The notes under the pieces were generated by a model, which did no database searches, was not told the DNA's origin, and saw only the letters and a program-made list of their open reading frames with translations. Below are positions 3,468 to 26,981 of a stretch of 44,890 nt of DNA, one piece after another; within the stretch, counting starts at the first letter, position 1, and each line of letters begins with the position of its first letter. The DNA is from Acidimicrobiia bacterium (GTDB lineage: Bacteria > Actinomycetota > Acidimicrobiia > Acidimicrobiales > JACDCH01). Both the position numbers and the translations under genes were made by a program. Location: positions 1 to 44,890 of the forward strand of contig JACDCH010000546.1 in assembly GCA_013694495.1 (NCBI GenBank), written 5' to 3'.

Positions 3468-3483
3468 CAGGCAACATGATGGC

Positions 3484-3753: not shown

Positions 3754-3781
3754 GGACGGCGGTCGCCTCGTTCAAACGCGA

Positions 3782-3970: not shown

Positions 3971-4074
3971 GGCTTTGACGGGTTTCACAGGTGCAGTATG
4001 CGCCGTGGTGCCTCGGTGTGCAAGATCTCTGCTACCGTGATACCATTCCACCAAACCAGCACAGGAGGCCGCTC

Positions 4075-4344: not shown

Positions 4345-4366
4345 CTCGACTACGTCGGAGACGACC

Positions 4367-6491: not shown

Positions 6492-6492
6492 C

Positions 6493-7437
6493 GTGAAGGA
6501 GCCGTCCGTGGATGAGGGACCGACCAGCAGCGACGACGCCACAACAGCGAGTAGCGGGAACACTCCGGCGCCTGCGGTGCGAACGCCGTTGTATCGCGCG
6601 TCGAACGCGCCAAGGTACGGCCGCCAGTCGCTCATCAAGGAGATCCAAGGCAAGGAGAATCGAAAGCTGATCTGCTACGTCGCCGGTGCAGCAGCCTCGA
6701 TGACGAGGGACGACGTCTTGCCGCTGGTCGATCTGTTCCACACGGTCCCCGAAGGGTCAAACATCGACCTCATGCTTCAAACTCCAGGCGGTGACGTGGA
6801 TGCCGCCGAGAAGATGGCGTCGATGCTCCGAAAGCGCGTGGGGCCAGAGTCGGAGTTCCGAGTCATCGTCCCCGACTACGCGAAGAGCGCGGGCACGCTG
6901 ATTGCGCTCGCGAGCGACACGATCCTGATGAGCGACAGCTCCGAGCTTGGACCAGTCGACCCTCAACTCCCGTTACCCGATGGCAGCGGGCGAGCGAACC
7001 TCCGACCGGTGCAGTCGTACGTCGACGGCCACGACGCGCTCGTCGAGCTGGTCAACCAAGAGCCGAACGCAGCTGGTTATCGGCTCATGCTTGACAAGTA
7101 CGACCCCACCACCATCGACCTGTGCAGAAAGGTGCTCGAACGATCCACCCGTCTGGCGGAGGAGTTGCTCAAGGGAGGCATGTTCCGTCCGCCGCGTGGC
7201 GGCAACTTCACGGGTGTTGCGCGCGACCTGTCAGACAACAAGAAATGGCTGTGGCACGGCGCACCGATCGATCACAAGGAAGCTGAGCGACTTGGCCTTG
7301 CCGTCACCTATCTCGCCCCGCGTGACCCTAACTGGGAGCAGTACTGGAACCTGTACTGCGAACAGCGACTCGCGCTGAACGACTCCAACACAGCGAAACT
7401 GTTTGAATCCGACTACGTCTCACTCGTGATCGGCTAG
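6493..7437 (+). CDS. ClpP/SppA-fold serine protease (SDH-type Clp-fold proteinase)
   Basis: GTG start 2 nt after the previous stop. IDLMLQTPGGDVDAAEKMASMLR ... VIVPDYAKSAGTLIALASDTILMSDSSELGPVDPQ is the characteristic Clp-fold serine peptidase core, with the putative nucleophile in KSAGT at about 6883-6897. Confidence 0.75.
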   Translation: MKEPSVDEGPTSSDDATTASSGNTPAPAVRTPLYRASNAPRYGRQSLIKEIQGKENRKLICYVAGAAASMTRDDVLPLVDLFHTVPEGSNIDLMLQTPGGDVDAAEKMASMLRKRVGPESEFRVIVPDYAKSAGTLIALASDTILMSDSSELGPVDPQLPLPDGSGRANLRPVQSYVDGHDALVELVNQEPNAAGYRLMLDKYDPTTIDLCRKVLERSTRLAEELLKGGMFRPPRGGNFTGVARDLSDNKKWLWHGAPIDHKEAERLGLAVTYLAPRDPNWEQYWNLYCEQRLALNDSNTAKLFESDYVSLVIG

Positions 7438-7674
7438 CGACTTCGTGATCCCACGTACGCGGTGCTCGCCGACTTCAAGTACCGCGTGCGCGGGCGGTTG
7501 GTGATGAGCGGGATCGCCAACGGAGCCCTCGCACGAGGCCGAGTACCCTCGATCCTCGTGCGTTCGATCCGTGCTGCCGAGAGCTGCGAAGTGCCGCTTC
7601 ATGCTGCACCGTCCGCGGGATTTTCGCGGGATCGCGCTTCCGAGCCCGGTCGGCGAAGGCCCACCGAGAGCCCC

Positions 7675-7701
7675 GAAAACCGCATCTGACCTGCGGTTTT
7701 C
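7675..7701. terminator. A-tract / 10-bp stem / T-tract hairpin (possible bidirectional intrinsic terminator) 10 nt upstream of the tRNA
   Basis: GAAAACCGCA-TCTGACC-TGCGGTTTTC is a perfect 10-bp stem with a 7-nt loop. The GC core is only 6 bp, so its strength is uncertain. Confidence 0.35.
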
Positions 7702-7710
7702 CACTATCCC

Positions 7711-7786
7711 GCCCTCGTAGCTCAGGGGATAGAGCATCGGTTTCCTAAACCGTGTGTCGCATGTTCGAATCATGCCGAGGGCGCCA
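7711..7786 (+). tRNA. tRNA-Arg (anticodon CCT), CCA encoded
   Basis: Folded by hand. Acceptor GCCCTCG/CGAGGGC, D-arm GCTC-AGGGGATA-GAGC, anticodon loop TTCCTAA, T-arm GCATG-TTCGAAT-CATGC, discriminator G then CCA. Confidence 0.9.
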
Positions 7787-7895
7787 CTAAAAGACCTGGC
7801 CAAAGGCCATTTCTGGGCGACAGATCCAGCCCGCCTCGACGACTTGCCCATCCAAATCGCCACTCTTGCCCATCCGATATGCAAGGATGACGGGC

Positions 7896-9053
7896 ATGGC
7901 CGGATCGATCCGCCAGCGAGGGAAGCAGTCGTGGGAGGTCCGATCCTTCGCCGGCAAAGACCCCGCGACTGGCAAGAAGCAGTACGTCACCAAGACGATC
8001 CGAGGTAGCCGCAAGGAAGCGGAGGTCGCCCTCGGCCGCATGCTCGGTGAGATCGAGGACGGCCAGCACACCGCGCGCGCCGGCACGGTCGGTGATCTGT
8101 GCGAGCGCTGGTTCGCCCAGGCCGCGCCCGACCTCTCACCGTCGGTCGCACCCGAGTACCGCCGACTGCTCGACAACCGCATCCTCCCCCGCTGGGGCTC
8201 AACCCCGCTGCGCCGAGTGCGCACCGCGGACCTCGACCTCTGGTACTCCGAGCTCCGCCGGAGCGGCGGTCTCAAGAGCGGCGGCCCGCTCGCCCCCAAC
8301 ACGGTGACGCGCATCCACGCCGTGCTCCGGCGCGCGCTGGCCCAGGGCGTGAAGTGGGGCTGGCTCACCACGAATCCCGCGGCGAACGCATCTCCGCCCC
8401 GCGCCCACAAGCAGCAGCTCAGCCTGCCCGACCCGTCCGACGTCGCTCGGCTCATCGAGGCGGCGGCCGACGTCAATCCGTCGCTGCCGACCTACTTCCG
8501 CCTTGCGGCGGCGACGGGAGCCCGCCGCGGTGAGATGTGCGCGCTGCGGTGGAAGCACGTCGACTTCGAGCGACGCCGCCTCACCATTGCCCGCGGCATC
8601 GTCGAGGCCGGGGGCAAGCTCATCGACAAGGACACGAAGACCCACCAGGTGCGAACCGTGACGCTCGACGAGGAGACGACGGCGATCGTCCTGGCCCACC
8701 ATGATCGGTGCGCCGATCTCGCGGAGACGTGCGGCACGACCTTGTCGCCGATCTCGCATCTGTTCTCGCACGAGGTGGACTTCTCGAAGCCATGGCGACC
8801 CGGCTACGCCACCCTCGCCTTCGGCCGCCTACGAGACGAGCTCGGGCTGGAAGGCGTGAAGCTCCACCATCTCCGCCACTTCAGCGCCACCCAGCTCCTG
8901 TCACTCGGTATCGACGTTCGCACGGTGAGCGGCCGCCTCGGTCACGCCAACGCTTCGACGACTCTCGACATCTACGCCCAGTTCATGACGCAGGCCGACG
9001 AGCGGGCCGCGAATGTGCTCGGCGCGCTGCTCAAGACACCCGACCCGTCCTGA
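7896..9053 (+). CDS. int: tyrosine recombinase (integrase) of the tRNA-Arg island
   Basis: ORF 7866..9053, with the start taken at MAGSIRQRGKQSWEVR. Motifs: ATGARRGEMCAL, LHHLRHFSATQLL, RLGHANASTTLDIYAQF. Confidence 0.9.
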   Translation: MAGSIRQRGKQSWEVRSFAGKDPATGKKQYVTKTIRGSRKEAEVALGRMLGEIEDGQHTARAGTVGDLCERWFAQAAPDLSPSVAPEYRRLLDNRILPRWGSTPLRRVRTADLDLWYSELRRSGGLKSGGPLAPNTVTRIHAVLRRALAQGVKWGWLTTNPAANASPPRAHKQQLSLPDPSDVARLIEAAADVNPSLPTYFRLAAATGARRGEMCALRWKHVDFERRRLTIARGIVEAGGKLIDKDTKTHQVRTVTLDEETTAIVLAHHDRCADLAETCGTTLSPISHLFSHEVDFSKPWRPGYATLAFGRLRDELGLEGVKLHHLRHFSATQLLSLGIDVRTVSGRLGHANASTTLDIYAQFMTQADERAANVLGALLKTPDPS

Positions 9054-9059: not shown

Positions 9060-11321
9060 TCACGCCGGTGCGGGCGACGCCGGTTCCTCGATGCCAAGGC
9101 GCCGCCGTTCCGACGCGAGGATCAGCGCCTCGGCCTGCGTCTCGTTCACGATCTTCTGCACGTCCTGGAGGTCAGAGATGTCGACGGAGTCCGGCGTGGC
9201 GTCCTTGACCGCGCTCCCCAGCACGAACTGCTCGATGAGGTGCTGCTTGCCGGCGAGCACGGCGAGCATCCGCTGGTCGACGGTGTCCTCGAGGAGGAGC
9301 CGGTGCACCTGGACCCGCCGCACCTGGCCCATGCGGTGGCAGCGGGCGACCGCTTGTGCTTCGACGGTCGGCTTCCACTGCGGCTCGCAGAGGATGACGA
9401 CCGATGCGGCCTGGATGTTGAGTCCGACGCCGCCCGCCTCGATCTGGGAAGTGAGCACTCCACCGCCCGGCCGCGCGCCCAACGCATCGACAAGCCGCTG
9501 GCGCTCGGCCGGCGGTGTGCTCCCCGTGAGCGGGCCGTAGACGGCGCCGGGGAGCGCGACGTTGGCGGCTCGGGTCACCCGGTCGAGCACATCCCGGAAG
9601 TAGGAGAACACCACCACCTTGAGGCCCTCCTCGCTGGCCTCCTCGAGGATGTCGACCAGGCGGGCCGTCTTGGCCGAGTGCTCGATCTCCAACACCGCAG
9701 CCGGGCCACCGTCGGGGATGCTCGTGTAGGCGGCCCGGCGCATCGTCTGGAAGGCCTGGGCCTCGACGGCCGCTCGGTAGGTGCGGAGATCCTCGGGTGT
9801 GGGATCCACCCAGTCGAGCGAAGGGATCTGCTCGGGCAGCTCGTTGAGCACGTCGATCTGGTTGCGGCGGAGGTACGCAGGGGCGACGGCGGTCTGGAAC
9901 GCCACCGGTCCTGCGAGCGCCGTCGCGGCGTTGACCCGGACGGCGACCTCCGGTTGGAGGTGGTCGATCAGGTTGCGGAACTCCTCCACGCGGTTCTCCA
10001 TCGGGGTTCCGGTTAGGAACAGCACCCGCTCGGCGCCGTCGGCCCACCGGGCGACGGCCTGTGAGCGCAGGGTCGCGGGGTTCTTGACGTAGTGAGCCTC
10101 GTCGACGACCAACATGGCGAGCGACGAGTCCGCTCCATCGGCGTTCGGATCGGGATCGGCAGGATCGAACCGGCGGAGCCCGTCGAAGGTGGTGATGGCC
10201 ACGCCGCCTTGGCGGAGCCACGATCGGTGTGCCCGGTCCCGCTCGGCGCCATGGAGCACGTGGGCCGCGAGCTCTGTGTGACGGTGGATCTCGCTTCGCC
10301 AGTTCGCGACCACGCTGGCGGGGCACACCACCATCGCCCGCTGCTTCCCCGCCGCCCGGAGGTGGCAGAGAGCGGCCAGCGCCTCGACTGTCTTGCCCAG
10401 GCCCATCTCGTCGCCGAGGATCGTCCGCCGCTGCACCAACGCGTACTTGGCACCGAAGGCCTGGTAACCGCGAAGGCTGGCCTTGAGGAAGGACAGGTCG
10501 AGAGCCAGGGCCTGCACCCGCTCCACGATCTCGGCCGGGAGATGGCCCCGATTCGCCTCCTCGCCCGTGCCCTCGACGATCTCGCCGAGCACGCCGAGGA
10601 GGTGGGCCGCGTTGTGCTCGAAGTCGATCCACACCTCCTCGTGGGCCCGCGGCCGGTTGATCTCGTGCAGCGAAGTGGCGAGGTACTGCCGGAACTGGAC
10701 CACCGACGGGTCGGCCAGGATTCGGTCGAGCTGCTCGACGGCGACGTTCGCCGCCGTCTTCGCGGCGGCGCGCACGAAGATGCGCCGCAGCCAGGGACGA
10801 GCTGCCGGCTCAGTGTCGACAGCCAGCGGTGACGCCGTGGCGCGCAGCCATTGGCTCATCGCTTGCGACTCGTCGACCGCCCGGGCGGCGAGGTCGTAGC
10901 GACGCAGCGAGACCAGCACGTCGGTCTGCGCCGCCGGCCGTGCGACGACGTCGAAGTGGACGCGGACCGCGGCTTCGGTGGCTGCAAGCACCTGGCGGGC
11001 CGCGGCGAGCGCCTGGGTCGCGGTGGCGTCACCGACGCCCGGCACCGCTCGGAGGCGAGCGGCAGTGGCGCCGAGGAGCTGATCGACGGTGCGATACCCC
11101 GTTCGTTCGAGCGCGTCGAGCCGCAGACCCTTGGCCGTCTCGCGCAGCCGGGCCACGGGCACCTGCGCCATCTGCCCCAACGCAACCGCCCGCCGGATGG
11201 CCGACACCTGTGCGCGGGCGACGTCGGCCACGCCGGCGGGCAGCGATTCGAGGGTGCCGACCTCGGCGAGGAGTGCCTCGTGTTCGGCCAGCACCTGTCG
11301 CGCTGATCGTGTGTCCGCCAT
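9060..11321 (-). CDS. SNF2-family helicase (DrmD-like), N-terminal helix-hairpin-helix-like region
   Basis: ORF 9060..11474 with the start re-called at MADTRSARQ (ATG 11321). SNF2_N motifs: LRGYQAFGAKYAL, LGDEMGLGKTVEAL, LVVDEAHYVKN. Helicase_C motifs: LTSQIEAGGVGLNIQAASVVILCEPQWKP, RCHRMGQ. Also VPGVGDATATQALAAA. Confidence 0.9.
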   Translation of the reverse strand: MADTRSARQVLAEHEALLAEVGTLESLPAGVADVARAQVSAIRRAVALGQMAQVPVARLRETAKGLRLDALERTGYRTVDQLLGATAARLRAVPGVGDATATQALAAARQVLAATEAAVRVHFDVVARPAAQTDVLVSLRRYDLAARAVDESQAMSQWLRATASPLAVDTEPAARPWLRRIFVRAAAKTAANVAVEQLDRILADPSVVQFRQYLATSLHEINRPRAHEEVWIDFEHNAAHLLGVLGEIVEGTGEEANRGHLPAEIVERVQALALDLSFLKASLRGYQAFGAKYALVQRRTILGDEMGLGKTVEALAALCHLRAAGKQRAMVVCPASVVANWRSEIHRHTELAAHVLHGAERDRAHRSWLRQGGVAITTFDGLRRFDPADPDPNADGADSSLAMLVVDEAHYVKNPATLRSQAVARWADGAERVLFLTGTPMENRVEEFRNLIDHLQPEVAVRVNAATALAGPVAFQTAVAPAYLRRNQIDVLNELPEQIPSLDWVDPTPEDLRTYRAAVEAQAFQTMRRAAYTSIPDGGPAAVLEIEHSAKTARLVDILEEASEEGLKVVVFSYFRDVLDRVTRAANVALPGAVYGPLTGSTPPAERQRLVDALGARPGGGVLTSQIEAGGVGLNIQAASVVILCEPQWKPTVEAQAVARCHRMGQVRRVQVHRLLLEDTVDQRMLAVLAGKQHLIEQFVLGSAVKDATPDSVDISDLQDVQKIVNETQAEALILASERRRLGIEEPASPAPA

Positions 11322-11340
11322 CGCAGCAAGGTATCGGCCC

Positions 11341-11374
11341 CCTGTGACCGGCTTCCGGCTCACCCTGTCACAGG
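11341..11374. promoter_or_regulatory. 8-bp inverted repeat in the divergent promoter region between the two helicase genes
   Basis: CCTGTGAC (11341-11348) and GTCACAGG (11367-11374), within the 110-bp spacer between starts 11321 (-) and 11432 (+). Confidence 0.3.
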
Positions 11375-11431
11375 CCTCACGTAGGGTGACCACGGCGTCG
11401 AGCGAGTGCCGGCGGTGAACGGAAGGACACG

Positions 11432-14400
11432 ATGATGGCTGGGGACCCGCGCCCGGCAGCTGGTGGCGGAACACGCCTCGAAGACCTGACGGTCGGCGCG
11501 CTCGTCCACGGCCTGTCCACCTCGGGCCCCGTCACAGTGGTCGCCACCAAGTGGCACGGGTCGGTCGCGCTCACCTTGACCTGTCGGGACGCATCGGGCC
11601 ACGTGAGCGAGCGGGTGCTCTACCGCGACGACGAGTCCGGTCTGAGGGTCGAGAGCTCCACCCGGGGGTGGTCGTTCGACGCCGACGGCGATCTGTTCCG
11701 CCTGGCCGCCGAGGCGCGCCGCATCCAGCTCGCCCATCTGTTCGACCCGATGCTGGCGATCTCGCTGTCGCAGGTCGATCCGCTGCCGCATCAGATCCAG
11801 GCCGTCTACGGCGAGCTGCTGCCACGCCAGCCCCTCCGCTACCTCCTCGCCGACGACCCCGGTGCCGGCAAGACGATCATGGCCGGCCTCTACATCAAGG
11901 AGCTGATCCTCCGTGGAGACCTGGCCCGGTGCCTCATCGTCGCCCCAGGCGGCTTGGTGGGGCAGTGGCAAGAGGAGCTCTACGACAAGTTCGACCTGAC
12001 GTTCGAGATCCTCACCCGCGAGCTCATCGACTCATCGCTGACGGCCAACCCCTTCGCCGAGAAGAACCTTCTCCTCACCCGCCTCGACCACCTGTCTCGC
12101 AACGAGGACCTCCAAGCCAAGCTGGCCGAGACCGACTGGGACCTGATCGTCGTCGATGAGGCCCACCGGATGGCTGCGCATTGGTTCGGGGGCGAGGTCA
12201 AGGAGACCCGTCGCTATCAGCTCGGCAAGATGCTCGGTGGTATCACGCGCAACCTGCTCTTGATGACGGCCACGCCCCATGCCGGTAAGGAGGAGGACTT
12301 CCAGCTGTTCCTCGCGTTGCTGGACGGTGACCGGTTCGAGGGGCGGTTCCGCGACGGGGTGCACACCGTCGACGTCTCGGACCTCATGCGCCGGATGATC
12401 AAGGAGAAGCTGCTGCGGATGGACGGGCGCCCGCTCTTCCCCGAGCGGATCGCCTCGACCGTTCCCTATCCGCTCTCGCCGCTCGAACAGGCGCTCTACG
12501 ACGAAGTCACGAGGTACGTGACCGACGAGATGAACCGCGCCGATCGGCTCGCCGCCGAAGGTGAGGGCCGGCGAGGGAACCGGGTCGGCTTCGCCCTCAC
12601 CGTCCTCCAGCGGCGCCTCGCGTCGAGCCCCGAGGCGATCTACCAGTCTCTGCGCCGCCGCCGAGTCCGACTCGAGAAGGATCTCGTCGATGCTCGGAAC
12701 CGGGCCCGCATCGCCTCGCTCCCGTCCGCCGAAGCCCGCATCGAGCGCCTCCTCGCCGACCTGGAACGGCCGGCTCGAGGGACCGACGACGACGACGACT
12801 TCGAGGACCGCATCGACGACCTCGCCGACGATGAGCGCGAGGAGGTCGAGGAGGAGCTGGTCGACTCCGCTTCCGCAGCCCGCACCGCGCAGGAGCTCGC
12901 GCTCGAGATCCAGACCCTCACTCGGCTCGAGGAGCTGGCCAACCAAGTCCGCAAGACCGGAACCGATCGCAAGTGGACCGAGCTCCTCTCGATCCTCGAC
13001 GAGAAGCCCGAGATGCGCCACGCCGACGGCTCGCGCCGCAAGCTCATCGTCTTCACCGAGCACCGCGACACCCTGACGTACCTCGTCGACCGGCTCCGCG
13101 ACCGGTTGGGCAAGCCTGAGGCCGTTGTCACGATCCACGGCGGCACAGCGCGCGAGCAGCGCCGGGCCATCCAGGAGCGCTTCACTCAGGACAAGGACTG
13201 TCTGATCCTTGTCGCCACCGACGCCGCCGGCGAGGGCCTCAACCTTCAGCGCGCCCACCTGCTCGTCAACTACGACCTGCCCTGGAACCCGAACCGGATC
13301 GAGCAGCGCTTCGGCCGCGTCCACCGCATCGGCCAGACCGAGGTCTGCCACATGTGGAACCTCGTCGCCGAGGACACCAGAGAAGGCCAGGTTTACCTGA
13401 CCCTTCTCGCCAAGCTGGAGGAGCAGCGCAAGGCGCTGTCCGGCCAGGTGTTCGATGTCCTCGGCGAGGCATTCCGTGACGCGCCACTTCGGGATCTGCT
13501 GCTCCGAGCGATTCGCTACGGAGACCAGCCCGAGGTCCGCGACGCCATCAACCAAGTGATCGACGAGAAGGTCGGTGACGGACTCGCCGAGCTGATCGAT
13601 GCCCATGCGCTCGCGTCGGACGTTCTCGGCGAGACCCAGGTCGAGCGGATCAGGACACAGATGGAAGAGGCCGAGGCTCGTCGGCTGCAGCCGCACTACA
13701 TCCGATCGTTCTTCCTCGAAGCCTTCGACCTGCTCGGCGGTCGGATCGTGGAGCGTGAGAAGGGCCGCTTCGAGATCAAGCACGTCCCGCAGGAGCTGCG
13801 GGATCGAGACCGCCAGATCGGGCTCGGGGCACCGGTGCTCCGAGCCTACGAACGCGTCTGCTTTGACAAGGAGCAGGTCCGGGTGGTGGGCAAGCCGATC
13901 GCCGAGCTCCTCGCGCCGGGACACCCTCTCCTCGACGCCATCCTCGATGTCACCCTCGAACGGCATCGTCGAGTACTCGCCCAAGGTGCGGTGCTCGTTG
14001 ACGATCGAGACGCAGGTCTCGACGCCCGAGTGTTGGTCCTTCTCGAACATGCCGTCGCCGACGGCCGCACAGACGGACGAGGAGCCGACCGACGAGTCAT
14101 CTCCCGCCAAATGCAGTTCATCGACCTCCACGAGGACGGCACGCACACAGCCAGCGATGCCGCGCCCTACCTCGATCTGCGGCCTGCAACCACGGGTGAG
14201 CGTGCGGTCGCCGAGCAACTCCTCACGAGCGGGGGATGGCTCGCGGGCGATCTAGAGGCTGCCGCATTCGACGTCGCCGTCGGCGAGGCGATCCCCACCC
14301 ACCTCGCACGCACTCGCCTCCGCACGACCGCCCGCACCCAGAAGGTGCGATCAGCGGTCTACGAGCGACTCACCCGGGAGATCAACCACTGGGATCACCG

Positions 14401-15028
14401 GGCGAACGAGCTCGCAGCACAGGTCGAGAGCGGCAAGCAGCCGAAGATGAACCCCGAGCGCGCCCGCCAACGAGCGGACGACCTCTCCGGCCGCCTCAAG
14501 CGGCGCATGGACGACCTCGACCGCCAAGAAGAGCTGCACGCCCAGCCTCCGACGGTGACCGGCGCCGCGCTCGTCCTCCCGGCTGGCCTACTCGGACCCG
14601 GCGACGGTCCAGCCGCACCGCCCGCCCACGCGAGGGAGACCGCCCGTGTCGAGCGTCGAGCAGTTGACGCGGTTCTGTCAACAGAGGAGCGACTTGGCCG
14701 CGATCCCCGCGAGATGCCCCACAACAACCCGGGCTACGACATCGCCAGCACTACGCACGACCGCCACCTCATCTTCATCGAGGTGAAGGGTCGCGTGGCC
14801 GGCGCCGAGACGGTCACGATCACCCGTAACGAGATTCTCACCAGCCTCAACACCGACCGCTGGGTGCTCGCACTCGTCGAGGTCGCCGACGCCGACGGGC
14901 AGCCGCGCGACCATGTCCGCTACCTCCACCACCCGTTCCGAGGACAGCTCGATGACCTCGGCTTCAAGGAGACCAGCCGCACCTTCCCGTGGCGTGGACT
15001 CTGGGACGCCGCAGGGGAGCCGGCATGA
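11432..15028 (+). CDS. SNF2/DEAH-type helicase with C-terminal DUF3883 (PD-(D/E)xK-like) domain
   Basis: Helicase motifs: LLADDPGAGKTIMAG, IVVDEAHRM, LLMTATPH, VATDAAGEGLNLQ, NPNRIEQRFGRVHRIGQ. The C-terminal NNPGYDIAS...HLIFIEVKGR...ITRNE (about 14720-14830) is the DUF3883 signature as I remember it. Confidence 0.9.
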   Translation: MMAGDPRPAAGGGTRLEDLTVGALVHGLSTSGPVTVVATKWHGSVALTLTCRDASGHVSERVLYRDDESGLRVESSTRGWSFDADGDLFRLAAEARRIQLAHLFDPMLAISLSQVDPLPHQIQAVYGELLPRQPLRYLLADDPGAGKTIMAGLYIKELILRGDLARCLIVAPGGLVGQWQEELYDKFDLTFEILTRELIDSSLTANPFAEKNLLLTRLDHLSRNEDLQAKLAETDWDLIVVDEAHRMAAHWFGGEVKETRRYQLGKMLGGITRNLLLMTATPHAGKEEDFQLFLALLDGDRFEGRFRDGVHTVDVSDLMRRMIKEKLLRMDGRPLFPERIASTVPYPLSPLEQALYDEVTRYVTDEMNRADRLAAEGEGRRGNRVGFALTVLQRRLASSPEAIYQSLRRRRVRLEKDLVDARNRARIASLPSAEARIERLLADLERPARGTDDDDDFEDRIDDLADDEREEVEEELVDSASAARTAQELALEIQTLTRLEELANQVRKTGTDRKWTELLSILDEKPEMRHADGSRRKLIVFTEHRDTLTYLVDRLRDRLGKPEAVVTIHGGTAREQRRAIQERFTQDKDCLILVATDAAGEGLNLQRAHLLVNYDLPWNPNRIEQRFGRVHRIGQTEVCHMWNLVAEDTREGQVYLTLLAKLEEQRKALSGQVFDVLGEAFRDAPLRDLLLRAIRYGDQPEVRDAINQVIDEKVGDGLAELIDAHALASDVLGETQVERIRTQMEEAEARRLQPHYIRSFFLEAFDLLGGRIVEREKGRFEIKHVPQELRDRDRQIGLGAPVLRAYERVCFDKEQVRVVGKPIAELLAPGHPLLDAILDVTLERHRRVLAQGAVLVDDRDAGLDARVLVLLEHAVADGRTDGRGADRRVISRQMQFIDLHEDGTHTASDAAPYLDLRPATTGERAVAEQLLTSGGWLAGDLEAAAFDVAVGEAIPTHLARTRLRTTARTQKVRSAVYERLTREINHWDHRANELAAQVESGKQPKMNPERARQRADDLSGRLKRRMDDLDRQEELHAQPPTVTGAALVLPAGLLGPGDGPAAPPAHARETARVERRAVDAVLSTEERLGRDPREMPHNNPGYDIASTTHDRHLIFIEVKGRVAGAETVTITRNEILTSLNTDRWVLALVEVADADGQPRDHVRYLHHPFRGQLDDLGFKETSRTFPWRGLWDAAGEPA

Positions 15029-15270
15029 CCACCTGGCCGAAGTCGTGGCTCGCCGGTTCACCGGGTGCCGCATGCCCGACGTGCGGCGAACGATCAGGCC
15101 GTCCCATCCTGATGGGCATGCCGAGCGGCGAGGTGTTCGAGGCCCTCGACGCCGGTGCGATCGACATCGAGCTAGGCGGCTGCTGCATCAGCGACGACGA
15201 CCCGACCCACCGCTGCGCCGCCTGCGGTGTGTCGTTCGGTGGGCGGCCGGCAGCTCAGGAGCGAACGTGA
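15025..15270 (+). CDS. 81-aa zinc-ribbon protein
   Basis: ATGA overlap with the helicase stop and GTGA overlap with the methyltransferase start. Contains CPTCG ... CAACG (two CxxC pairs). It is the in-frame tail of ORF 14989..15270. Confidence 0.55.
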   Translation: MTTWPKSWLAGSPGAACPTCGERSGRPILMGMPSGEVFEALDAGAIDIELGGCCISDDDPTHRCAACGVSFGGRPAAQERT

Positions 15271-17966
15271 AGCGCAAGCTCATCGAGGTGGCCCTACCGC
15301 TCGACATCATCAACGCCCAGTCGGCGCGCGAGAAGTCGATCCGCCACGGCCATCCCTCGACGCTGCACCTGTGGTGGGCCCGTCGGCCGCTCGCGGCTTG
15401 CCGAGCCGTGCTGTTTGCCCAGCTGGTCGACGACCCGTCGTCCGACCCCGACCACTTCCCCACCGAGGAGGCGCAGGACGCCGAGCGGCAGCGGCTGTTC
15501 CGCATCCTGGAGCGGCTCGTCCCGTGGGAGGCCCTCACCGACGAGGCCGTGCTCGCCGAGGCCAACGCGGAGATCCGGCGATCATGCGGCGACGAGCTCC
15601 CCACCGTTCTCGACCCGTTCGCAGGGGGAGGCTCGATCCCTCTCGAGGCGCAGCGGCTCGGCCTGTCCGCCGTGGCGAACGACCTGAACCCAGTCGCGGT
15701 GCTCATCAACAAGGCCCTCATCGAGATCCCGCCGGTTTTTGGCGGCCGGCCGCCCATCCATCCCGACGCCGAACGGCGCACCCGATGGGCCGGCGCAGAG
15801 GGCCTCGCAGAGGATGTTCGGCGCTACGGGCAATGGATGAGCGACGAGGCCGAGACGCGCATCGGCGCAAACTACCCGTCTGCGACCACCCCCGGCGGCG
15901 CCTCTACCGTCATCGCCTGGATCTGGGCCCGCACCGCCACCTGTTCGAACCCGGCCTGCCGGGGCACGATGCCATTGCTCAACTCCTATGCCCTGTCCAG
16001 GAAGAAGGGACGGGAGGCGTGGCTCGACCCGGTCGTCGATAGGGAGACGAAGACGGTGACCTTCCGAATCGGCACCGGCGCCGGTTGCCCACCAGGTGGG
16101 ACGGTGTCGCGGACGGGAGCGACCTGTCTGATCTGCGGAACGAACGTGCCGTTGGCCCACGTCCGCGCCGAGGGCAAGGCCGGTCGCATGGGAGCGCAGC
16201 TCGTGTGCACGGTGGCCGACGGGCCCCGTCAGCGCGTGTACCTGCCCGCCGACCCAGTGCACGCCGATGCCGCCAGGGTGACGGTGACGGACGCCGCACC
16301 AGACACGGACCTGCCCGAGCAGGCGCTCGGGTTCCGCGTCCAGGGCTACGGGATCACCAAACACCGCCAGCTCTTCACCGATCGCCAGCTCGTCGCGCTC
16401 ACGACGTTCGTGGACGTGCTCGGCGGCCTGCGGGCCCGAGCCCTTGCCGACGGCGCTGACGAACGGTACGCCGACGCGCTCGTCACCTACCTCTCCCTCG
16501 GCATCGGCCGGCTCGCGAACCGGTGCTCGTCGCAGTGCTTCTGGGACCCAGGTGGGGAGGGCGTCATGCAGGTCTTCGCCCGCAACGCGCTGCCGATGGT
16601 GTGGGTCTTCGCCGAGGCCAACCCGTTCTCGGAGGCGTCGGGCAACTTCACCGGCCAGCTCGAGTACCTGGCCAACGCCCTGGAACGGGTACCGGCTCGC
16701 GGCCACGGGACCGCGGCGCAGGCCGACGCAGCCCACCCGCCGGCCCGCGAGCGGATGGTCATTGCCACTGACCCGCCCTACTACGACAACGTCCCCTACG
16801 CCGACCTCTCGGACTTCTTTTACGTGTGGCTCCGACAGTGCCTCTCCACCGTCCACCCCGAGCTGTTCGGCACGGTCCTGGTGCCAAAGGCCGAAGAGCT
16901 CATCGCCGAGCCGGCTCGCCAGGGCTCCTGGGACGAGGCGGCATCGTTCTTCGAGACGGGCCTACGGACGGTGTTCGCCCGGATCCTCGACACGCAGGTC
17001 GAGGGCATCCCGTTCACGGTCTTCTACGCGTTCAAGCAGTCTGAGGCGGTCGAAGACGTAGAAGGCAACATCGAGCGGGCGTCGACGGGCTGGGAGACGA
17101 TGTTGCAGGGTCTGCTCGACGCCGGTGCAATGATCACCGGGACCTGGCCGATGCGTACCGAGCAGCCCGGCGGGTTGCGCGAGGTCGGCCGCAGTGCGCT
17201 CGCCTCGTCCATCGTGCTGGTCTGCCGGCCGCGCGAGGTGCACGCCGGCATGACCGACCGGCGGGGCTTCCTCACGGCCTTGCGGGCCGAGCTCCCTCAG
17301 GCGCTGCGCGACCTGCAGAAAGGGAACACCGCGCCGGTCGATCTGGCCCAGGCCTCGATCGGCCCCGGCATGGCCGTGTACTCCCGCTACGCCAAGGTCG
17401 TCGAGCCTGACGGCAGCCCCATGCGCGTGAGGGCCGCGCTGGGACTGATCAACCAGACCCTCGATGAGGTCCTCTCCGAGCTCGACGCCGACTTCGACCC
17501 CCGCACGCGCTGGGCCGTGAAGTGGTTTGAGCAGTTCGGCTTCGACGAGGGTCCCTCCGGCCAGGCCGACGTCCTCTTCACGGCCACGGCCACTTCCCTC
17601 GACGGCGTGAAACGAGCCGGCATCGCCGGCTCGTCACCGGGGAAGGTGTGGCTCCTGGGGCGACCCGACCTACCGGCGGACTGGGATCCGACCACCGACA
17701 CCATCACACCGGTATGGGAGGTGACTATGCACCTGCTCAAGCGCCTCGAGGAACGTGGCGAGGCCGCCGCCGGCGGACTGCTCTCCCAGGTCGGCGGCGT
17801 CGGCGACACTGCCCGGGAGCTCGCCTACCGACTGTTCGCGATCTGCTCGAACCGGAAATGGGCAAGCGAGGCGCTCGCCCTCAACGGTCTCGTCACCTCC
17901 TGGCCGGAGATCGCCCGCCTCGCGGCCTCCGGTTCGAGGAACGCCGAGCAAGGAACACTTCTTTGA
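15267..17966 (+). CDS. DUF1156-type DNA methyltransferase (DPPY, N6A/N4C class) with internal zinc ribbon
   Basis: Start re-called at GTG 15267 (VKRKLIEVALPLD) within ORF 14913..17966. DUF1156 signature: HGHPSTLHLWWARRPLAACRAV. SAM motif: VLDPFAGGGSIPLEA (about 15608-15650). Catalytic motif: ATDPPYYDNVPY (DPPY at 16770-16781). Also CSNPAC...CLICG. Confidence 0.9.
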   Translation: MKRKLIEVALPLDIINAQSAREKSIRHGHPSTLHLWWARRPLAACRAVLFAQLVDDPSSDPDHFPTEEAQDAERQRLFRILERLVPWEALTDEAVLAEANAEIRRSCGDELPTVLDPFAGGGSIPLEAQRLGLSAVANDLNPVAVLINKALIEIPPVFGGRPPIHPDAERRTRWAGAEGLAEDVRRYGQWMSDEAETRIGANYPSATTPGGASTVIAWIWARTATCSNPACRGTMPLLNSYALSRKKGREAWLDPVVDRETKTVTFRIGTGAGCPPGGTVSRTGATCLICGTNVPLAHVRAEGKAGRMGAQLVCTVADGPRQRVYLPADPVHADAARVTVTDAAPDTDLPEQALGFRVQGYGITKHRQLFTDRQLVALTTFVDVLGGLRARALADGADERYADALVTYLSLGIGRLANRCSSQCFWDPGGEGVMQVFARNALPMVWVFAEANPFSEASGNFTGQLEYLANALERVPARGHGTAAQADAAHPPARERMVIATDPPYYDNVPYADLSDFFYVWLRQCLSTVHPELFGTVLVPKAEELIAEPARQGSWDEAASFFETGLRTVFARILDTQVEGIPFTVFYAFKQSEAVEDVEGNIERASTGWETMLQGLLDAGAMITGTWPMRTEQPGGLREVGRSALASSIVLVCRPREVHAGMTDRRGFLTALRAELPQALRDLQKGNTAPVDLAQASIGPGMAVYSRYAKVVEPDGSPMRVRAALGLINQTLDEVLSELDADFDPRTRWAVKWFEQFGFDEGPSGQADVLFTATATSLDGVKRAGIAGSSPGKVWLLGRPDLPADWDPTTDTITPVWEVTMHLLKRLEERGEAAAGGLLSQVGGVGDTARELAYRLFAICSNRKWASEALALNGLVTSWPEIARLAASGSRNAEQGTLL

Positions 17967-17988
17967 TGATGAGTGCGGAGGGGGCGCC

Positions 17989-18303
17989 ATGAGTATCTCG
18001 CTGCAGCGCGCCGAGGAACTGCTCCTGCGAGCGGTGGGGATTCTGGCCACCGACCCGGGCGAGGTCCGCGCCCGGCTTCACCACGCTCGCGAGGACCTGT
18101 TCGAACTCGACGAGATCGCCGCCCAGACTGAGCCGGACGGCGCCCCGTACCTCGCGGAGCTGAACGCTCGCATCGCCGCAGTGCGCTCAACCCTCGCTGG
18201 TGGGGGCGTCATGGACCTGAGCGAGGACCAGGGCGTCGAGTGCGCGAAGGAAGTTCTCGACATCTACCTCAGCGTCCGAGCATTTCGGAAGGACGTTCCC
18301 TAA
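17989..18303 (+). CDS. 104-aa helical hypothetical protein
   Basis: ATG 17989 is preceded by GGAGGGGG. Its stop overlaps the next start (TAATG at 18301-18305). Codon bias fits. No family recognised. Confidence 0.5.
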   Translation: MSISLQRAEELLLRAVGILATDPGEVRARLHHAREDLFELDEIAAQTEPDGAPYLAELNARIAAVRSTLAGGGVMDLSEDQGVECAKEVLDIYLSVRAFRKDVP

Positions 18304-21300
18304 TGACCGGGCCCAGCAACCGGGATCGCGTCGGGAAGGCGTTCGAGCACCTTGGCGAGGGCTTGCGGCCGTACGTCGACCGCCGGATGACCAAGAAGTC
18401 GCCGCTGAAGGAGCGTTGGTGGCCGGAGTGGGCGAACCGCTCCCGCGGTGACGCCTCGATGGACGATCCGGCGGAGCTCCTCAAGGTGATGGCCGACTGC
18501 TGGGACCTGGCGTTCCGTGATGAGCTCACCCGTACCGACCGCAATGTCGTGTTCACGCTGCGGGACACCCGCAACAAGTGGGCGCACAACGGCAAGTTCG
18601 ATCTCGACGACGCCTACCGGGCCCTCGACGGCATCGAGGTGTTGCTCCGGGCGATCGACGCCAGCGAGGCCGAGGTCGTCGGCGAGTCGAAGGACGAGCT
18701 GATGCGCCTGCGTTACGCGTCAGATGCGAAGACGGCGACTAAGCAGGAGGTGCTCATCGCCGCGCCACCCGCCGGGCTGACGCCGTGGCGGGAAGTGATG
18801 GTCCCCCACGAGGACGTGGCCGCTGGTCGCTTCAACCAGGCCGAGTTCGCGGCCGATCTGTGGCAGGTCCAGTCCGGGCAGGGACGCGCTGAGTACGTCG
18901 ACCCCATCGAGTTCTTCCGTCGCACCTTCCTGACCGAGGGGCTGCGCACGCTTCTCTCGGAGGCCGCGCTCCGACTCACCTCGTCCGGTGGCGTGCCGGT
19001 GGTCGACCTGCAGACGAACTTCGGTGGCGGCAAGACCCACAGCCAGATCGCTCTCTGGCACCTGTTCTCGGGAACACCACTCGAATCGTTCCCCGACGAG
19101 GTGCGGTCGCTCCTGGCGTCCGAAGGGGTGACGTCGCTGCCTTTTGCGCGCCGGGCGGTGCTTGTGGGCACGAAGGTCCCCCCCGGTCAAGTGACCGTTA
19201 AGCCCGATGGCACCGAGACCCGGACGCTCTGGGGTGAGCTGGCCTGGCAGCTCGGCGGACCGGAGGGGTTCGCCCTAGTTGCGGAGTCCGACCGGACGGC
19301 AACCAACCCCGGCGAGGCGCTCAACCGGCTCCTCGAGCAGTGCTCCCCCTGCCTCATCCTCATCGACGAGTGGGTGGCTTACGCCCGGCAGCTCTCCGAC
19401 ACGAGGGAGGAGGTCGTCGGCGGCAGCTTCGACACGCAGTTCACCTTCGCCCAGGCCCTTACTGAGGCCGCCCGAGCGGTGCCCGGGGCCCTGCTCGTCG
19501 TGTCTCTACCGGCATCGGAGGGCACCGGTGACGCTGGGATCGGCTCCGACATCGAGGTCGGAGGCGCCGGCGGTCGGGAGGCGCTACGGAAGCTGCGGCT
19601 GGTCATCGGACGCATGGAATCGTCGTGGCGACCCGCCACCGCTGAGGAGAGCTTCGAGATCGTTCGCCGCCGGCTGTTCCGGCCGATCGAGCCGGGCCGC
19701 GAGGCCGCCCGCGACGCCACCGCCCAGGCGTTCGGCCGGATGTACCAGAAGGAGGCGTCGGAGTTCCCCAACGAGTGCCGGGAGCCGGCGTACGTCGACC
19801 GGATGAAGGCGGCGTACCCGATCCACCCTGAGCTGTTCGCCCGGCTTTACGAGGACTGGTCGACCCTCGATCGCTTCCAACGCACCCGGGGCGTGCTGCG
19901 GCTGATGGCTTCGGTGATCCACGCCCTGTGGGAGGCCGGCGACCAGTCACCGCTCATCCTCCCGTCTTCGATCCCCCTGGCTGACGCAGCCGTGTCGGCC
20001 GAGCTCACCCGCAACCTCGACGACCAGTGGAAGCCGATCATCGACCACGACATCGACGGCCCGGGCTCCGTCCCCGTCGCCCTCGACCGCGAGCTAGCCG
20101 GCACGCTCGGCAAGTTCCAGGCCGCTCGGCGCGTGGCACGCTGCATCTTCCTCGGGTCGGCGCCTACCGTTCGGTCGGCCAACCGCGGCATCGACCCCGC
20201 CCGCATCCGCCTCGGCTGCGTCCTGCCGTCGGAGGGCATCGCCACCTACGGCGATGCCCTGTCCCGGCTCTCAGGCCGGGCCACCTACCTGTACGCCGAC
20301 GGCGGCCGCTACTGGTTCGGGGTCCAACCGTCAGTGGCTCGCGTCGCTCGCGACCGCGCCGAGCGCTACCTCAACCAGCAGCGTGACGAGCTGCACATGG
20401 AGATCGTCCGCCGGCTGCGGGCGGCGCAGAGCGAGCCGGGCGAGTTCCGGGCCGTGCACCCGCCAGCGTCGAGTTCAGCCGACATTCCCGACGAGGCCGA
20501 GACCCGACTTGTCATCCTCGGTCCCGATCATCCCCACATCGCCCGCTCCGACAACAGCGCGGCCCTCGCCGCCGCCGCCGAGATCCTGGAGCGCCGGGGC
20601 GCAGCGCCGAGGGATCACCGCAACTGTGTGGTGTTCCTGGCACCGGACCACAAGCGCCTCGATGAGCTCGAGCAGGCTGTCGCCGACTACCTGGCCTGGT
20701 CGTCGGTCGACGCCGAGCGCGGCGAGGACGGCCTGAACCTCGATCCGAACCAGGCTCGGCAGGCGTCGACCAAGCGCGATGACAGCGACCGGGCGGTGAC
20801 GATCCGGCTGGCCGAGACCTACCAATGGGTGCTGGTCCCCACCCAGCTCGACCCGCTGGGGCCGGTCAGCTGGGACAAGGTCAAGGTCGACGGACAGGGC
20901 GGACTCGCCGTTCGCGCCAGCAGGAAGCTCGTCAACGAGGCGCACCTATACACCCAGTTCGCCCCAGCGCTCCTCCGCCAGCGCCTCGACGGCGAGCTCG
21001 CCTCGCTCTGGACCGACGGGCACGTCAGCGTCAACAAACTGTGGGACGCGTTCTCCCGATACCTCTATCTCCCTCGACTCCGCGACCCGGCCGTCCTCCT
21101 GTCATCGGTCGGAGCCGGTGCGGCCAGCGTCATGTGGCAAGCCGAGGGCTTCGCGACTGCGGATGCTTACGACGAGGCCACAAGCCGTTACCTCGGCCTG
21201 ACCGTCGGGGGGCTGGCGAACCCCATTACCTCCACCCTGGTGGTCGTCCCGGACCGAGCTGCCGCGCAGATGGACGCCGACCGCACACGAGCCGCGGCCA

Positions 21301-21635
21301 CCGGCGGATCGGTTGAAGCCGGCGAGGACGATCCGACGACCGGAGAGACAAGCAGCGCAAGTGGTGAGGTTGCTCCGCCTGGTCCGGCGGTGCCGACGAA
21401 GCCCACCCGGTTCCACGCCGCAGTCAACCTCGATCCCGAGCGTCTGAACCGTGACTTCGGAAAAGTCTCGGCTGAAGTAATCGCCCACCTGACGAGCCTT
21501 CTCGGCACTGATGTGACGATCACGGTCGAGATCGGCGCGACGAACACCGAGGGCTTCGCGGACACGACTGTGCGCAACGTGACGGAGAATGCGAAGACCC
21601 TCAAATTCACCGACTACGGCTTCGAGGACCGATGA
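18303..21635 (+). CDS. Swt1-like HEPN domain fused to a DUF499 P-loop ATPase
   Basis: Start re-called at MTGPSNRDRVGKAFEHL within ORF 18240..21635. HEPN motif: TLRDTRNKWAHNGKF (R-x4-H at 18570-18587). P-loop: NFGGGKTHSQ. The long C-terminal region is typical of DUF499 proteins. Confidence 0.85.
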   Translation: MTGPSNRDRVGKAFEHLGEGLRPYVDRRMTKKSPLKERWWPEWANRSRGDASMDDPAELLKVMADCWDLAFRDELTRTDRNVVFTLRDTRNKWAHNGKFDLDDAYRALDGIEVLLRAIDASEAEVVGESKDELMRLRYASDAKTATKQEVLIAAPPAGLTPWREVMVPHEDVAAGRFNQAEFAADLWQVQSGQGRAEYVDPIEFFRRTFLTEGLRTLLSEAALRLTSSGGVPVVDLQTNFGGGKTHSQIALWHLFSGTPLESFPDEVRSLLASEGVTSLPFARRAVLVGTKVPPGQVTVKPDGTETRTLWGELAWQLGGPEGFALVAESDRTATNPGEALNRLLEQCSPCLILIDEWVAYARQLSDTREEVVGGSFDTQFTFAQALTEAARAVPGALLVVSLPASEGTGDAGIGSDIEVGGAGGREALRKLRLVIGRMESSWRPATAEESFEIVRRRLFRPIEPGREAARDATAQAFGRMYQKEASEFPNECREPAYVDRMKAAYPIHPELFARLYEDWSTLDRFQRTRGVLRLMASVIHALWEAGDQSPLILPSSIPLADAAVSAELTRNLDDQWKPIIDHDIDGPGSVPVALDRELAGTLGKFQAARRVARCIFLGSAPTVRSANRGIDPARIRLGCVLPSEGIATYGDALSRLSGRATYLYADGGRYWFGVQPSVARVARDRAERYLNQQRDELHMEIVRRLRAAQSEPGEFRAVHPPASSSADIPDEAETRLVILGPDHPHIARSDNSAALAAAAEILERRGAAPRDHRNCVVFLAPDHKRLDELEQAVADYLAWSSVDAERGEDGLNLDPNQARQASTKRDDSDRAVTIRLAETYQWVLVPTQLDPLGPVSWDKVKVDGQGGLAVRASRKLVNEAHLYTQFAPALLRQRLDGELASLWTDGHVSVNKLWDAFSRYLYLPRLRDPAVLLSSVGAGAASVMWQAEGFATADAYDEATSRYLGLTVGGLANPITSTLVVVPDRAAAQMDADRTRAAATGGSVEAGEDDPTTGETSSASGEVAPPGPAVPTKPTRFHAAVNLDPERLNRDFGKVSAEVIAHLTSLLGTDVTITVEIGATNTEGFADTTVRNVTENAKTLKFTDYGFEDR

Positions 21636-21669: not shown

Positions 21670-22191
21670 ATGGCACTGACCATTGGGTCCAACCCGCACC
21701 AGGGTCATCACGCCGAGGGAATGCTCGCCGCCCTGGCTGCATCGGCTGGTCTGGACATTCAGGTTCCGCGGTTGGGTTACGCGATCGACATGTCGATCTT
21801 CAACCCGGGCCCCAATGGCACATCCGGAAGTCGACAGATCACGGTCCAAGTCAAGAGCTGGTCGACCGGGAGCCTTCACGACGACGGGACGTTCCACTAT
21901 CCGCTCAAGTGCTCCGCCTTCAACTACCTCGCAGGCGGTGGCCATGACGTCCGCCACTACCTCGTGCTGTGCATCGTCCCGGCCGATGGCAACGACTACG
22001 CCGACGCCGGCGCCGATCGCCTGAAGCTTCGCCAAGCCCTGTACTGGCATTCGCTGCACAACGACACGCCCGACGACAACCTTGATCCCGAGAGCACGAA
22101 GACCGTCTACGTGCCTCGGACGAACATGCTCACGCCGGTCACCCTGCGCTACCTCGTCGATCACAACGAAGCGCTGGCGGTCGTGCCATGA
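21670..22191 (+). CDS. DUF4365-like PD-(D/E)xK nuclease-fold protein (173 aa)
   Basis: ATG 21670 lies downstream of GGAGGG and within ORF 21589..22191. The layout HAEGMLAALAASAGL ... GYAIDMSIF ... ITVQVKSW ... YLVLCIVP ... ALYWHSL fits the E / D / QxK pattern that I associate with DUF4365. Confidence 0.55.
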   Translation: MALTIGSNPHQGHHAEGMLAALAASAGLDIQVPRLGYAIDMSIFNPGPNGTSGSRQITVQVKSWSTGSLHDDGTFHYPLKCSAFNYLAGGGHDVRHYLVLCIVPADGNDYADAGADRLKLRQALYWHSLHNDTPDDNLDPESTKTVYVPRTNMLTPVTLRYLVDHNEALAVVP

Positions 22192-23354
22192 GGGTGCGCG
22201 TACTCGATCCCAGCGCGCTCGCAAGCCCCGGTGCACGGCGGATACGTCTGTATCTTCGACTCAACGGCTGGGCGCAGGAGACGACCGACCAGGGCGGCCC
22301 CGACGTCTGGGGCCGTCAGGCAGAAGGCGATGTCTACGAGGTCATCGCACCATCTCAGACGGCACGGGACTTCACGTCCCGGGTTTCGGAGCTGCTGCAC
22401 ACGCTGTCGGTCGTTGAGGACCGATCGGAGTCCGACGTCCTCCGTGACTTGCTCACCGTCACGTTCGACGTGCAGTACCTCCGTACCGGGCACGAGGGAC
22501 CTCCCGGAACAGCGCCGCTCCGCGACGCCGCCGATGCAGTCGCGGCAGCGCACAATCTGCTTGCGTCCGCGACCGCTGCGTTGGAAGAACCTCGCCTGGT
22601 GCAGCCGAGCCGACGGCCGGCCAAGACCACCGACTTCATGCGGAAGGTTCTTGCAGGGCCGACATCGGTCGGCAGTTTCGTGATCTCTACTTGGGTGCCC
22701 ATTCCACCCCGGCTGTCGCCGGAGGAGGACCAAGTCCTCTTCGACGACCCGAATGAGCCGTTCGAGCGCCAGGCAACGAGGCATCTGAGTCGTGCGCTCG
22801 CCGCAGCGCAGCAGGCCAGCGACGAGGCGCTGTCCTCGGACGCGGGGCTCGATGCCTTCCTCGCTGGTGAACAGGACGGCCTCAGCGCCAATCTCTGCGA
22901 GGCACTGGTGGCACTGGCGGGCGAACAGGAGGTGCCGCTGGGGATCACACTGGCTTGGGCCCTCGACCGCCCGATGCAGCACCTGCCATCCGAGTTCAGT
23001 TTCCCGACTGAGTCGATCTCAGTGCTGCGCGAGGCGGCACGCGAACTGCGCCAACGGCTACCCGAAGAGGTAGTTCGGGTGCGAGGAAATGTCGTACGCC
23101 TCCACCGTGACGCCGTTTCCGGCGCGGGTGACGTCACCATCGCCGGCATCGTGTCGGGTGACGATCTGGGCAAGCTTCGCCGAATCTCCGCATCTCTGGC
23201 GGAGGAGGACTACGAGCAAGCAATCGAGGCGCACCAGCAGTTCTCCGACGTAGAGATCGTCGGCGAGCTGTACCAACGGGGCACCCGGACGCACCTTCGG
23301 GATGCCCGAGGCTTCGCGGTCCATCCCGCCGCGGACGAGCATCCAGGCTCGTAG
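22188..23354 (+). CDS. 388-aa hypothetical protein, no recognisable family
   Basis: ATGA overlap with the preceding gene. Good G/C third-position bias. No P-loop, TM segment or catalytic motif found by eye. Confidence 0.65.
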   Translation: MRVRVLDPSALASPGARRIRLYLRLNGWAQETTDQGGPDVWGRQAEGDVYEVIAPSQTARDFTSRVSELLHTLSVVEDRSESDVLRDLLTVTFDVQYLRTGHEGPPGTAPLRDAADAVAAAHNLLASATAALEEPRLVQPSRRPAKTTDFMRKVLAGPTSVGSFVISTWVPIPPRLSPEEDQVLFDDPNEPFERQATRHLSRALAAAQQASDEALSSDAGLDAFLAGEQDGLSANLCEALVALAGEQEVPLGITLAWALDRPMQHLPSEFSFPTESISVLREAARELRQRLPEEVVRVRGNVVRLHRDAVSGAGDVTIAGIVSGDDLGKLRRISASLAEEDYEQAIEAHQQFSDVEIVGELYQRGTRTHLRDARGFAVHPAADEHPGS

Positions 23355-26918: not shown

Positions 26919-26981
26919 GGGACGCCCCCAGGATCCCGCGGGGTCCGCCGCAGGCGGAACCTGCAAGTCTTTGAAGGCTTG

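Follow-up and report, generated by a model that had tools for sequence, protein, structure and literature searches.

Which defense system is encoded at positions 9060 to 21635 of contig JACDCH010000546.1, from an Acidimicrobiia bacterium, and do the additional genes packed around its recognizable core belong to that system? An earlier note on this DNA, made from the sequence alone, had read the locus as an Hma-type helicase/methylase/ATPase operon with two extra micro-genes and a divergent SNF2 helicase, the last of these making it a hybrid with DISARM. Within the window, by which we mean the whole stretch of 44,890 nucleotides (nt) analyzed here (G+C about 70%), there is an operon on the + strand (11432-21635) with the gene order HmaA, mic1, HmaB, mic2, HmaC and, on the - strand (9060-11321), a gene for a second helicase that we call SNF2x. 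We consider it likely, with good confidence, that this is an actinobacterial Hma operon, of the kind also classified as Type-1 BREX-related (Type-1 BR): HEPN-fused, anti-phage in the manner of restriction-modification (R-M) systems, carried on an island at a tRNA-Arg gene, and extended by three accessory genes. The core trio has been described before; what is new is its extension by SNF2x, mic1, and mic2. Our analysis covers gene content, motifs, selection, and synteny; the activities discussed below are drawn from the literature on the family.

The Hma assignment comes from the three large proteins, each of which matches its PADLOC profile with an E value of 0. HmaA (1198 aa; 11432-15028, +) aligns to PDLC00659 over profile positions 3-1149 of 1176 (1535 bits), HmaB (899 aa; 15267-17966, +) to PDLC00660 and PDLC00661 near full length (1025 and 1011 bits), and HmaC (1110 aa; 18303-21635, +) to PDLC00662 over its full length (1016 bits). 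Everything that PADLOC asks of an Hma system is found here, with HmaA, HmaB, and HmaC present, clustered, contiguous, and co-directional, and the profile searches in Pfam support all of the DUF1156, DUF499, and DUF3883 assignments that had been made by eye. The core proteins are full-length, with intact catalytic motifs. HmaA is a RapA-like Swi2/Snf2 helicase, RapA being its best solved relative, with SNF2-rel_dom and Helicase_C domains and a C-terminal PD-(D/E)xK nuclease domain, NOV_C (formerly DUF3883; 4.5e-15); its motifs are GAGKT144, DEAH242, and GYDI...IEVK (D1103, E1117, K1119). HmaB is a DNA methyltransferase of the N6-adenine type with a DUF1156 N terminus (1.1e-31), motifs FAGGG118 and DPPY502, and a four-Cys finger (C226, C231, C287, C290). 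In HmaC, an N-terminal Swt1-type HEPN RNase domain (HEPN_Swt1, 3.5e-28; RNKWAH90) precedes a DUF499 AAA+ ATPase (7.3e-26) with GGGKT as Walker A and LILIDE as Walker B. A HEPN-DUF499 ATPase, a DUF1156 N6-methyltransferase, and a Swi2/Snf2 helicase with a C-terminal PD-(D/E)xK domain are also what defines the Type-1 BREX-related systems (PMC12839542). No Pfam match to HKD, PglZ, or DUF3780 was seen in any operon protein. The NCBIfam models of a related PLD-helicase/DUF1156/DUF499 system score far below their cut-offs on the core proteins, and the locus therefore belongs to the Hma branch and not to that one.

R-M-like operons with HEPN-DUF499 and SNF2-DUF3883 proteins (the Ava_2192 type) were noted first in 2013 by Anantharaman et al. 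(PMC3710099). The name Hma does come from the PADLOC authors, as the earlier note said; Payne et al. (2021) counted 1,638 loci in 26 phyla (PMC8565338). The BR classification of Rakesh and Krishnan (2026) covers 2446 taxa, 1370 of them with the HEPN fusion (PMC12839542). The note's statement that the system is poorly characterized is now only half true: HmaA of Halomonas meridiana has been shown to lower T4 about 100-fold on its own, and Mn-dependent nickase activity was found for its NOV_C domain (Microb Biotechnol 2024, PMC11232893). The Halomonas and window proteins are homologous over SNF2 and NOV_C and share the catalytic D...ExK residues and helicase motifs I, II, and VI. The Halomonas operon differs in having Septu and other genes inside it; a second SNF2 protein or a micro-gene is not described there, and HmaA alone was assayed (PMC11232893).

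In its core, our locus is like other Hma or Type-1 BR systems: the same three proteins stand in the same order, the Swi2/Snf2 helicase carries an active C-terminal PD-(D/E)xK domain (NOV_C/DUF3883), the DUF1156 N6-methyltransferase has a Zn finger, and the Swt1-type HEPN domain is fused to a DUF499 AAA+ ATPase whose C terminus is hypervariable (the latter also reported in PMC12839542). A gene of the DUF4365 family (PF14280; probably a nuclease) lies where PMC12839542 places auxiliary nucleases. The locus differs in adding an HhH-SNF2 helicase without a nuclease, on a divergent promoter, and two small open reading frames (ORFs) within the operon. The second helicase and the two small ORFs go unmentioned in the main texts of PMC8565338, PMC12839542, and PMC3710099, a statement that does not extend to the supplementary neighborhood tables of PMC12839542.

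The relationship to BREX proper is more distant. BrxC, BrxXI, and BrxHII of Type-3 BREX are homologous to the Hma ATPase, methylase, and helicase (PMC12839542), and the two share a logic of sensing, modifying, and restricting. However, our locus lacks PglZ, BrxA, and BrxB (no such domain was found by Pfam in the operon or its neighbors), its nuclease is fused to the helicase, and its ATPase is of the DUF499 and not the DUF6079 type. In Type-2 BR, the stand-alone DUF3780 gene shows that a BR operon can contain a small extra gene specific to its subtype, although neither mic1 nor mic2 resembles DUF3780 (no Pfam match), and the helicase there has an N-terminal HKD domain whereas the one at our locus has a C-terminal REase domain.

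What, then, of the two small genes? The gene map and the overlaps given previously proved exact to the base when the junctions were read from the sequence. The ATG of mic1 overlaps the TGA of HmaA (ATGA), the GTG start of HmaB overlaps the TGA of mic1 (GTGA), mic2 starts 22 nt past the HmaB stop with a GGAGG upstream, and the HmaC start overlaps the mic2 stop (TAATG). The five operon genes are translationally coupled.

The first small gene, mic1 (15025-15270, +), encodes an 81-aa Cys-rich protein that was followed by synteny, dN/dS, and profile search. In every case its homologs (49-80% identity) are placed between HmaA and HmaB, and the overlaps are preserved. In their alignment C17, C54, C64, and C67 and the motif RPIL.GM (RPILMGMP in the window) are invariant; C20 and C53 vary in a single sequence each. 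The protein is presumably zinc-binding. Searched with a profile, 1.84 billion representatives yielded 1520 clusters at E ≤ 1e-3, mostly stand-alone proteins of 60-100 aa; some family members are fused to HD_4 hydrolase domains, and one to a BrxC-type winged helix. In that last case (locus L112, 665-5017; related loci are designated here by L numbers), the 271-aa protein P0056 combines a BrxC-type winged helix (7.5e-16), a mic1-like Cys-rich domain, and a further domain, and its gene lies directly upstream of an EVE-McrB/McrC operon, a link between the mic1 domain family and restriction systems of other kinds. Searches of Pfam, NCBIfam, and PADLOC gave no match for mic1, and only sub-threshold matches of relatives to generic zinc ribbons.

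The second, mic2 (17989-18303, +), encodes a 104-aa all-helical protein, examined by synteny, dN/dS, and AlphaFold2. Its homologs are found in close relatives only (76-92% identity), always between HmaB and HmaC. It has no match in Pfam, NCBIfam, or PADLOC, and a Foldseek search of the PDB turned up nothing but generic helical bundles, none below E = 0.1. The distribution of mic2 follows that of the methylase allele. Sliding-window identity to close relatives breaks sharply where one gene gives way to the next: HmaA stays at 80-98% and HmaC at 82-93%, and HmaB is either at 91-98% or at 40-45%. HmaB is the hypervariable module, falling to 40-45% in relatives in which HmaA is at 80-92%. All five contigs that carry the HmaB allele of the window and reach past the HmaB stop (L019-L023) have mic2; in loci with other alleles that cover the HmaB-HmaC junction, mic2 is absent and HmaB directly abuts HmaC. 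The C terminus of HmaC is also hypervariable, with nucleotide identity to close relatives down to 57-63%. By analogy with Type I R-M and BREX, we infer that HmaB with mic2 may be an exchangeable specificity cassette.

The third accessory gene is SNF2x. It encodes a 753-aa HhH-SNF2 helicase without a nuclease domain, with SNF2-rel_dom (3.7e-33) and Helicase_C matches in Pfam and with GLGKT307, DEAH407, and motif VI intact; its best solved relative is the Rad54-like SNF2 double-stranded DNA translocase of Sulfolobus (1z63). The HhH-like N terminus claimed for it is borne out on most homologs, which carry a recorded HHH_5 domain, but in the window protein the match reaches 26.5 bits, just below the Pfam cut-off of 27. 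We place its start at the ATG at 11321; the reading frame is open back to a GTG at 11474, and the homologs are only 745-760 aa long.

The divergent arrangement of SNF2x and Hma seen in the window recurs at five further places: a 179-kb JGI contig (79% identity), L016 (67%), L113 (76%), plasmid p232 of Arthrobacter sp. Rue61a, and a plasmid of Rhodococcus qingshengii (both RefSeq; 42%). At L113, SNF2x also adjoins a TraG/TrwC transfer module. A scan of metagenomes gave 80 homologous loci at 43-72% identity, of which 39 have at least 1.5 kb of upstream sequence and are informative. An Hma gene lies directly upstream of SNF2x in 19 of these, in three arrangements: HmaA divergent (2 loci), HmaA co-directional (10 loci), and HmaC co-directional, forming an HmaA-HmaB-HmaC-SNF2x operon (7 loci). 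The type of arrangement tracks the clades of the helicase in a neighbor-joining tree. In the clade with co-directional HmaA, the HmaA stop and the SNF2x start overlap by 4 nt, and no HmaB or HmaC was found within the available 2-10 kb flanks. The earlier note had staked its reading on the SNF2 gene at 9060-11321 being syntenic with the operon in related loci; it is, and the reading therefore passes that test. At loci without Hma, no alternative conserved partner emerged, the neighbors being a cyclase-STAND protein, a kinase, a dehydrogenase, and a histidine kinase.

Certain observations weigh against our reading of the core and the accessory genes as one R-M-like system, and we take them together with the alternatives that they favor. 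About half of the informative SNF2x loci (20/39) have no Hma gene nearby, and the metagenome loci are partly redundant contigs (for example, L073/L074 and L080/L081). Homologs at 64-65% identity stand alone amid metabolic and regulatory genes, the family, with more than 4700 clusters at E ≤ 1e-50, is very large, two of its members adjoin DrmB or DrmA, and SNF2x in the window is transcribed apart from the operon. All of this would fit an independent helicase, such as a stand-alone defense, DNA-repair, or transcription factor, that takes no part in the work of Hma and lies beside it only because both accumulate in defense islands and on mobile elements. We regard such independence as possible but rather doubtful, since Hma is the sole recurrent neighbor of SNF2x, the Hma gene is always 5′ of SNF2x where the two are linked, the linkage is stable inside clades, and the 4-nt overlap with HmaA in one clade often comes without HmaB or HmaC nearby. 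Moreover, the divergent arrangement is retained at 42% to 79% identity, in Acidimicrobiia-like metagenome-assembled genomes, Arthrobacter, and Rhodococcus. From this pattern, SNF2x appears to be a facultative but recurrent, clade-stable partner of HmaA. The hybrid reading of the earlier note, in which SNF2x would be a DrmD left over or borrowed from DISARM, draws on the top PADLOC model for SNF2x, which carries a DrmD label (PDLC02627, 4.6e-163), and on two loci with SNF2x homologs that carry DrmB, one of them also DrmA (L039 and L087). We reject it as highly improbable. SNF2x reaches 72 and 64 bits against the NCBIfam DrmD equivalogs, whose cut-offs are 950 and 610; a DpdE-labeled PADLOC model (PDLC02852, 3.8e-141) scores it nearly as high, so that the DrmD label is unspecific; and Hma is about 10 times commoner than DISARM genes as a neighbor (19 versus 2 of the 39 informative loci). 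As the note itself had pointed out, the DISARM partners are missing: tblastn with queries from L039 and L087 found no DrmA or DrmB in the window, and no DUF1998/MZB or PLD domain (DrmC nuclease) was present in the large ORFs scanned.

The small genes invite a different doubt, that their frames stand open by chance in GC-rich intergenic linkers and yield no protein. Neither product is matched by the domain databases searched, and the AlphaFold2 models, built on shallow alignments, are of low confidence (pLDDT 51 for mic1 and 62 for the helical bundle of mic2). Furthermore, mic1 is absent from L113 and from the Arthrobacter and Rhodococcus plasmid loci, where the HmaA-HmaB gaps have stops in all frames, and in distant Hma loci HmaA/HmaB and HmaB/HmaC directly abut. 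Against this, dN/dS lies between 0.18 and 0.59 for the pair (0.21-0.43 at a saturating dS of 0.7-1.0 for mic1; 0.18-0.59 for mic2), the frame, length, and start/stop overlaps are retained in every relative, the cysteines and RPIL.GM motif of mic1 are invariant, its profile finds many clusters with domain fusions among them, and a Shine-Dalgarno-like site precedes each gene. We therefore think it very unlikely that these are chance frames; both micro-genes, by their selection and fixed positions, are real, as had been proposed. Still, 14 distant Hma loci (41-58% identity in an HmaB scan with one genome per species) have none of SNF2x, mic1, and mic2, and the accessory genes are therefore not universal. 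Finally, overexpression of Halomonas HmaB left T4 sensitivity to HmaA unchanged (PMC11232893), a point against the R-M logic proposed for the full system.

Some members of the SNF2x family do occupy DISARM-like settings. In L039 (3-11236), a translationally coupled HmaA-SNF2x pair is back-to-back with DrmB and DrmA homologs, and in L087 (35-9015), an SNF2x homolog follows DrmB and a PDC-S68 protein; it is probably because of loci like these that the PADLOC model matching SNF2x is labeled DrmD. There are also broader likenesses to class 1 DISARM, which is likewise a methylase-linked defense with an SNF2 helicase beside another helicase. HmaA is homologous to canonical DrmD across about 900 residues and, with 360 bits in NCBIfam, is closer to it than SNF2x is. 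The differences are that the window is without DrmA, DrmB (DUF1998/MZB), and the PLD nuclease and that the methylase and ATPase are of other families.

Returning to the Hma reading, one can envision how the parts might work together. Going by the literature on the family, HmaB would N6-methylate a motif in host DNA, marking it as self, and HmaC, an ORC/Cdc6-like AAA+ ATPase with a fast-evolving C terminus, would sense unmodified or foreign DNA. HmaA would then translocate on DNA and nick or cut it with the PD-(D/E)xK domain, with nickase activity and T4 defense known from the Halomonas protein only, and the HEPN RNase domain may be a back-up abortive effector. We imagine SNF2x as a second motor, which would assist HmaA in engaging or clearing target DNA and could be expressed from the shared divergent control region. 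The mic1 protein might be a stoichiometric small subunit, co-produced with HmaA and HmaB, and mic2 a small subunit accompanying one HmaB allele. A bolder version of this scheme, which we hold only tentatively, is that HmaA and its HhH-SNF2 partner make up a dedicated two-motor effector, which in one clade may be a minimal, modification-independent defense in itself, and that mic1 represents an undescribed zinc-binding domain family, maybe an adaptor in BREX-like and McrBC-like systems.

Hma, or Type-1 BR, is among the most widespread predicted defense systems (26 phyla, more than 2400 taxa), and one of its proteins has been tested so far. The second motor, the two co-translated small subunits, and the swapped methylase cassette are pointers to partners and specificity determinants. 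The two-gene module of HmaA and SNF2x would offer a simpler setting in which to ask what directs the helicase-nuclease to its target when there is no methylase. These findings refine a known family and leave the picture of bacterial immunity unchanged.

The spacer between SNF2x and HmaA (11322-11431) is exactly 110 bp long and, as the earlier note had it, contains an 8-bp inverted repeat (CCTGTGAC at 11341-48 and GTCACAGG at 11367-74). Both features are there, but the repeat is at chance level, since one of this size is present in 9% of shuffles and in 12% of 110-bp segments drawn at random from this sequence. The block CGTAGGGTGA, at about 11379-11389, contains a -10-like TAGGGT that fits the actinobacterial pattern TANNNT. 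It is invariant in three divergent spacers (the window, L016, and L025), about 45 nt upstream of hmaA, and the right arm of the inverted repeat, TGTCAC, is likewise kept in L016 and L025. A scan of the spacer for promoters and terminators with the sigma-70 consensus found nothing, as expected for a high-GC actinobacterium. A second inverted repeat, of 7 bp (TCACCCT/AGGGTGA), overlaps the CGTAGGGTGA block.

The surroundings are those of an island. A tRNA-Arg(CCT) gene (7711-7786, +; ARAGORN and Rfam) is followed by a tyrosine integrase (7866-9053, +; Pfam Phage_integrase, 1.2e-20), and it is likely that this junction is the left end of a mobile island carrying the Hma system. A search of the window for att repeats, both through direct repeats and with the 3′ end of the tRNA, came up empty. 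A second integrase lies with an HTH_17 excisionase-like gene at 1018-2575, and the segment between the integrases, about 2000-8000, has a lower G+C (62-65%), an indication that a single tRNA holds two islands in tandem. In that segment, at 4636-7437 (+), a ThiF/E1 domain is fused to an N-terminal region with a weak JAB-like match that stays below threshold, and an SDH-type ClpP-like serine protease is encoded next. The ThiF/E1 protein gives weak matches to the PADLOC E1-E2/Cap2 models and the 6A-MBL cap2_3 model, and the region may be a ubiquitin-like conjugation defense module.

On the other side, the DUF4365 gene (21670-22191, +; 173 aa; Pfam 8e-10, PADLOC candidate PDC-M02A 1.8e-40) is co-directional with HmaC and begins 34 nt past its stop. 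It overlaps through ATGA with a gene for a 388-aa protein (22188-23354, +; PADLOC candidate PDC-M02B, 7.7e-112). The PDC-M02A/B pair is found at the same position in L019 with 95-98% nucleotide identity, better conserved than HmaC; in another relative, a Shedu-type SduA_C gene takes its place. Further on, the stretch 23484-27618 holds the gene of a 1160-aa TrwC relaxase/helicase, on the - strand, and upstream of it, at 27436-27618, a 26-nt direct repeat (GCGCTCACGTTTGG.CTCAC...) in four copies that could be an oriT or iteron-like element. TrwC and the repeats mark the island as mobilisable or conjugative.

Beyond the relaxase, 28388-35286 (-) holds four co-directional genes (422, 1011, 302, and 493 aa) whose stops and starts overlap. 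A weak match to DUF2399/JetD/TIGR02679 was seen for the first and a faint one to an SMC-like coiled coil for the second, and the other two are unmatched; the cluster may be a very divergent Wadjet-like system. An AbiEii toxin and an AbiEi antitoxin (Pfam 2.8e-18 and 5.4e-32) follow at 35171-37015 (-). The whole region is a mobile defense island. Probably outside it lie a large secreted subtilase at 39304-42666 (-), with S8, fn3_6, PPC, and PA domains, and, at 44104-44193, a 15-nt periodic repeat in five overlapping 30-nt copies.

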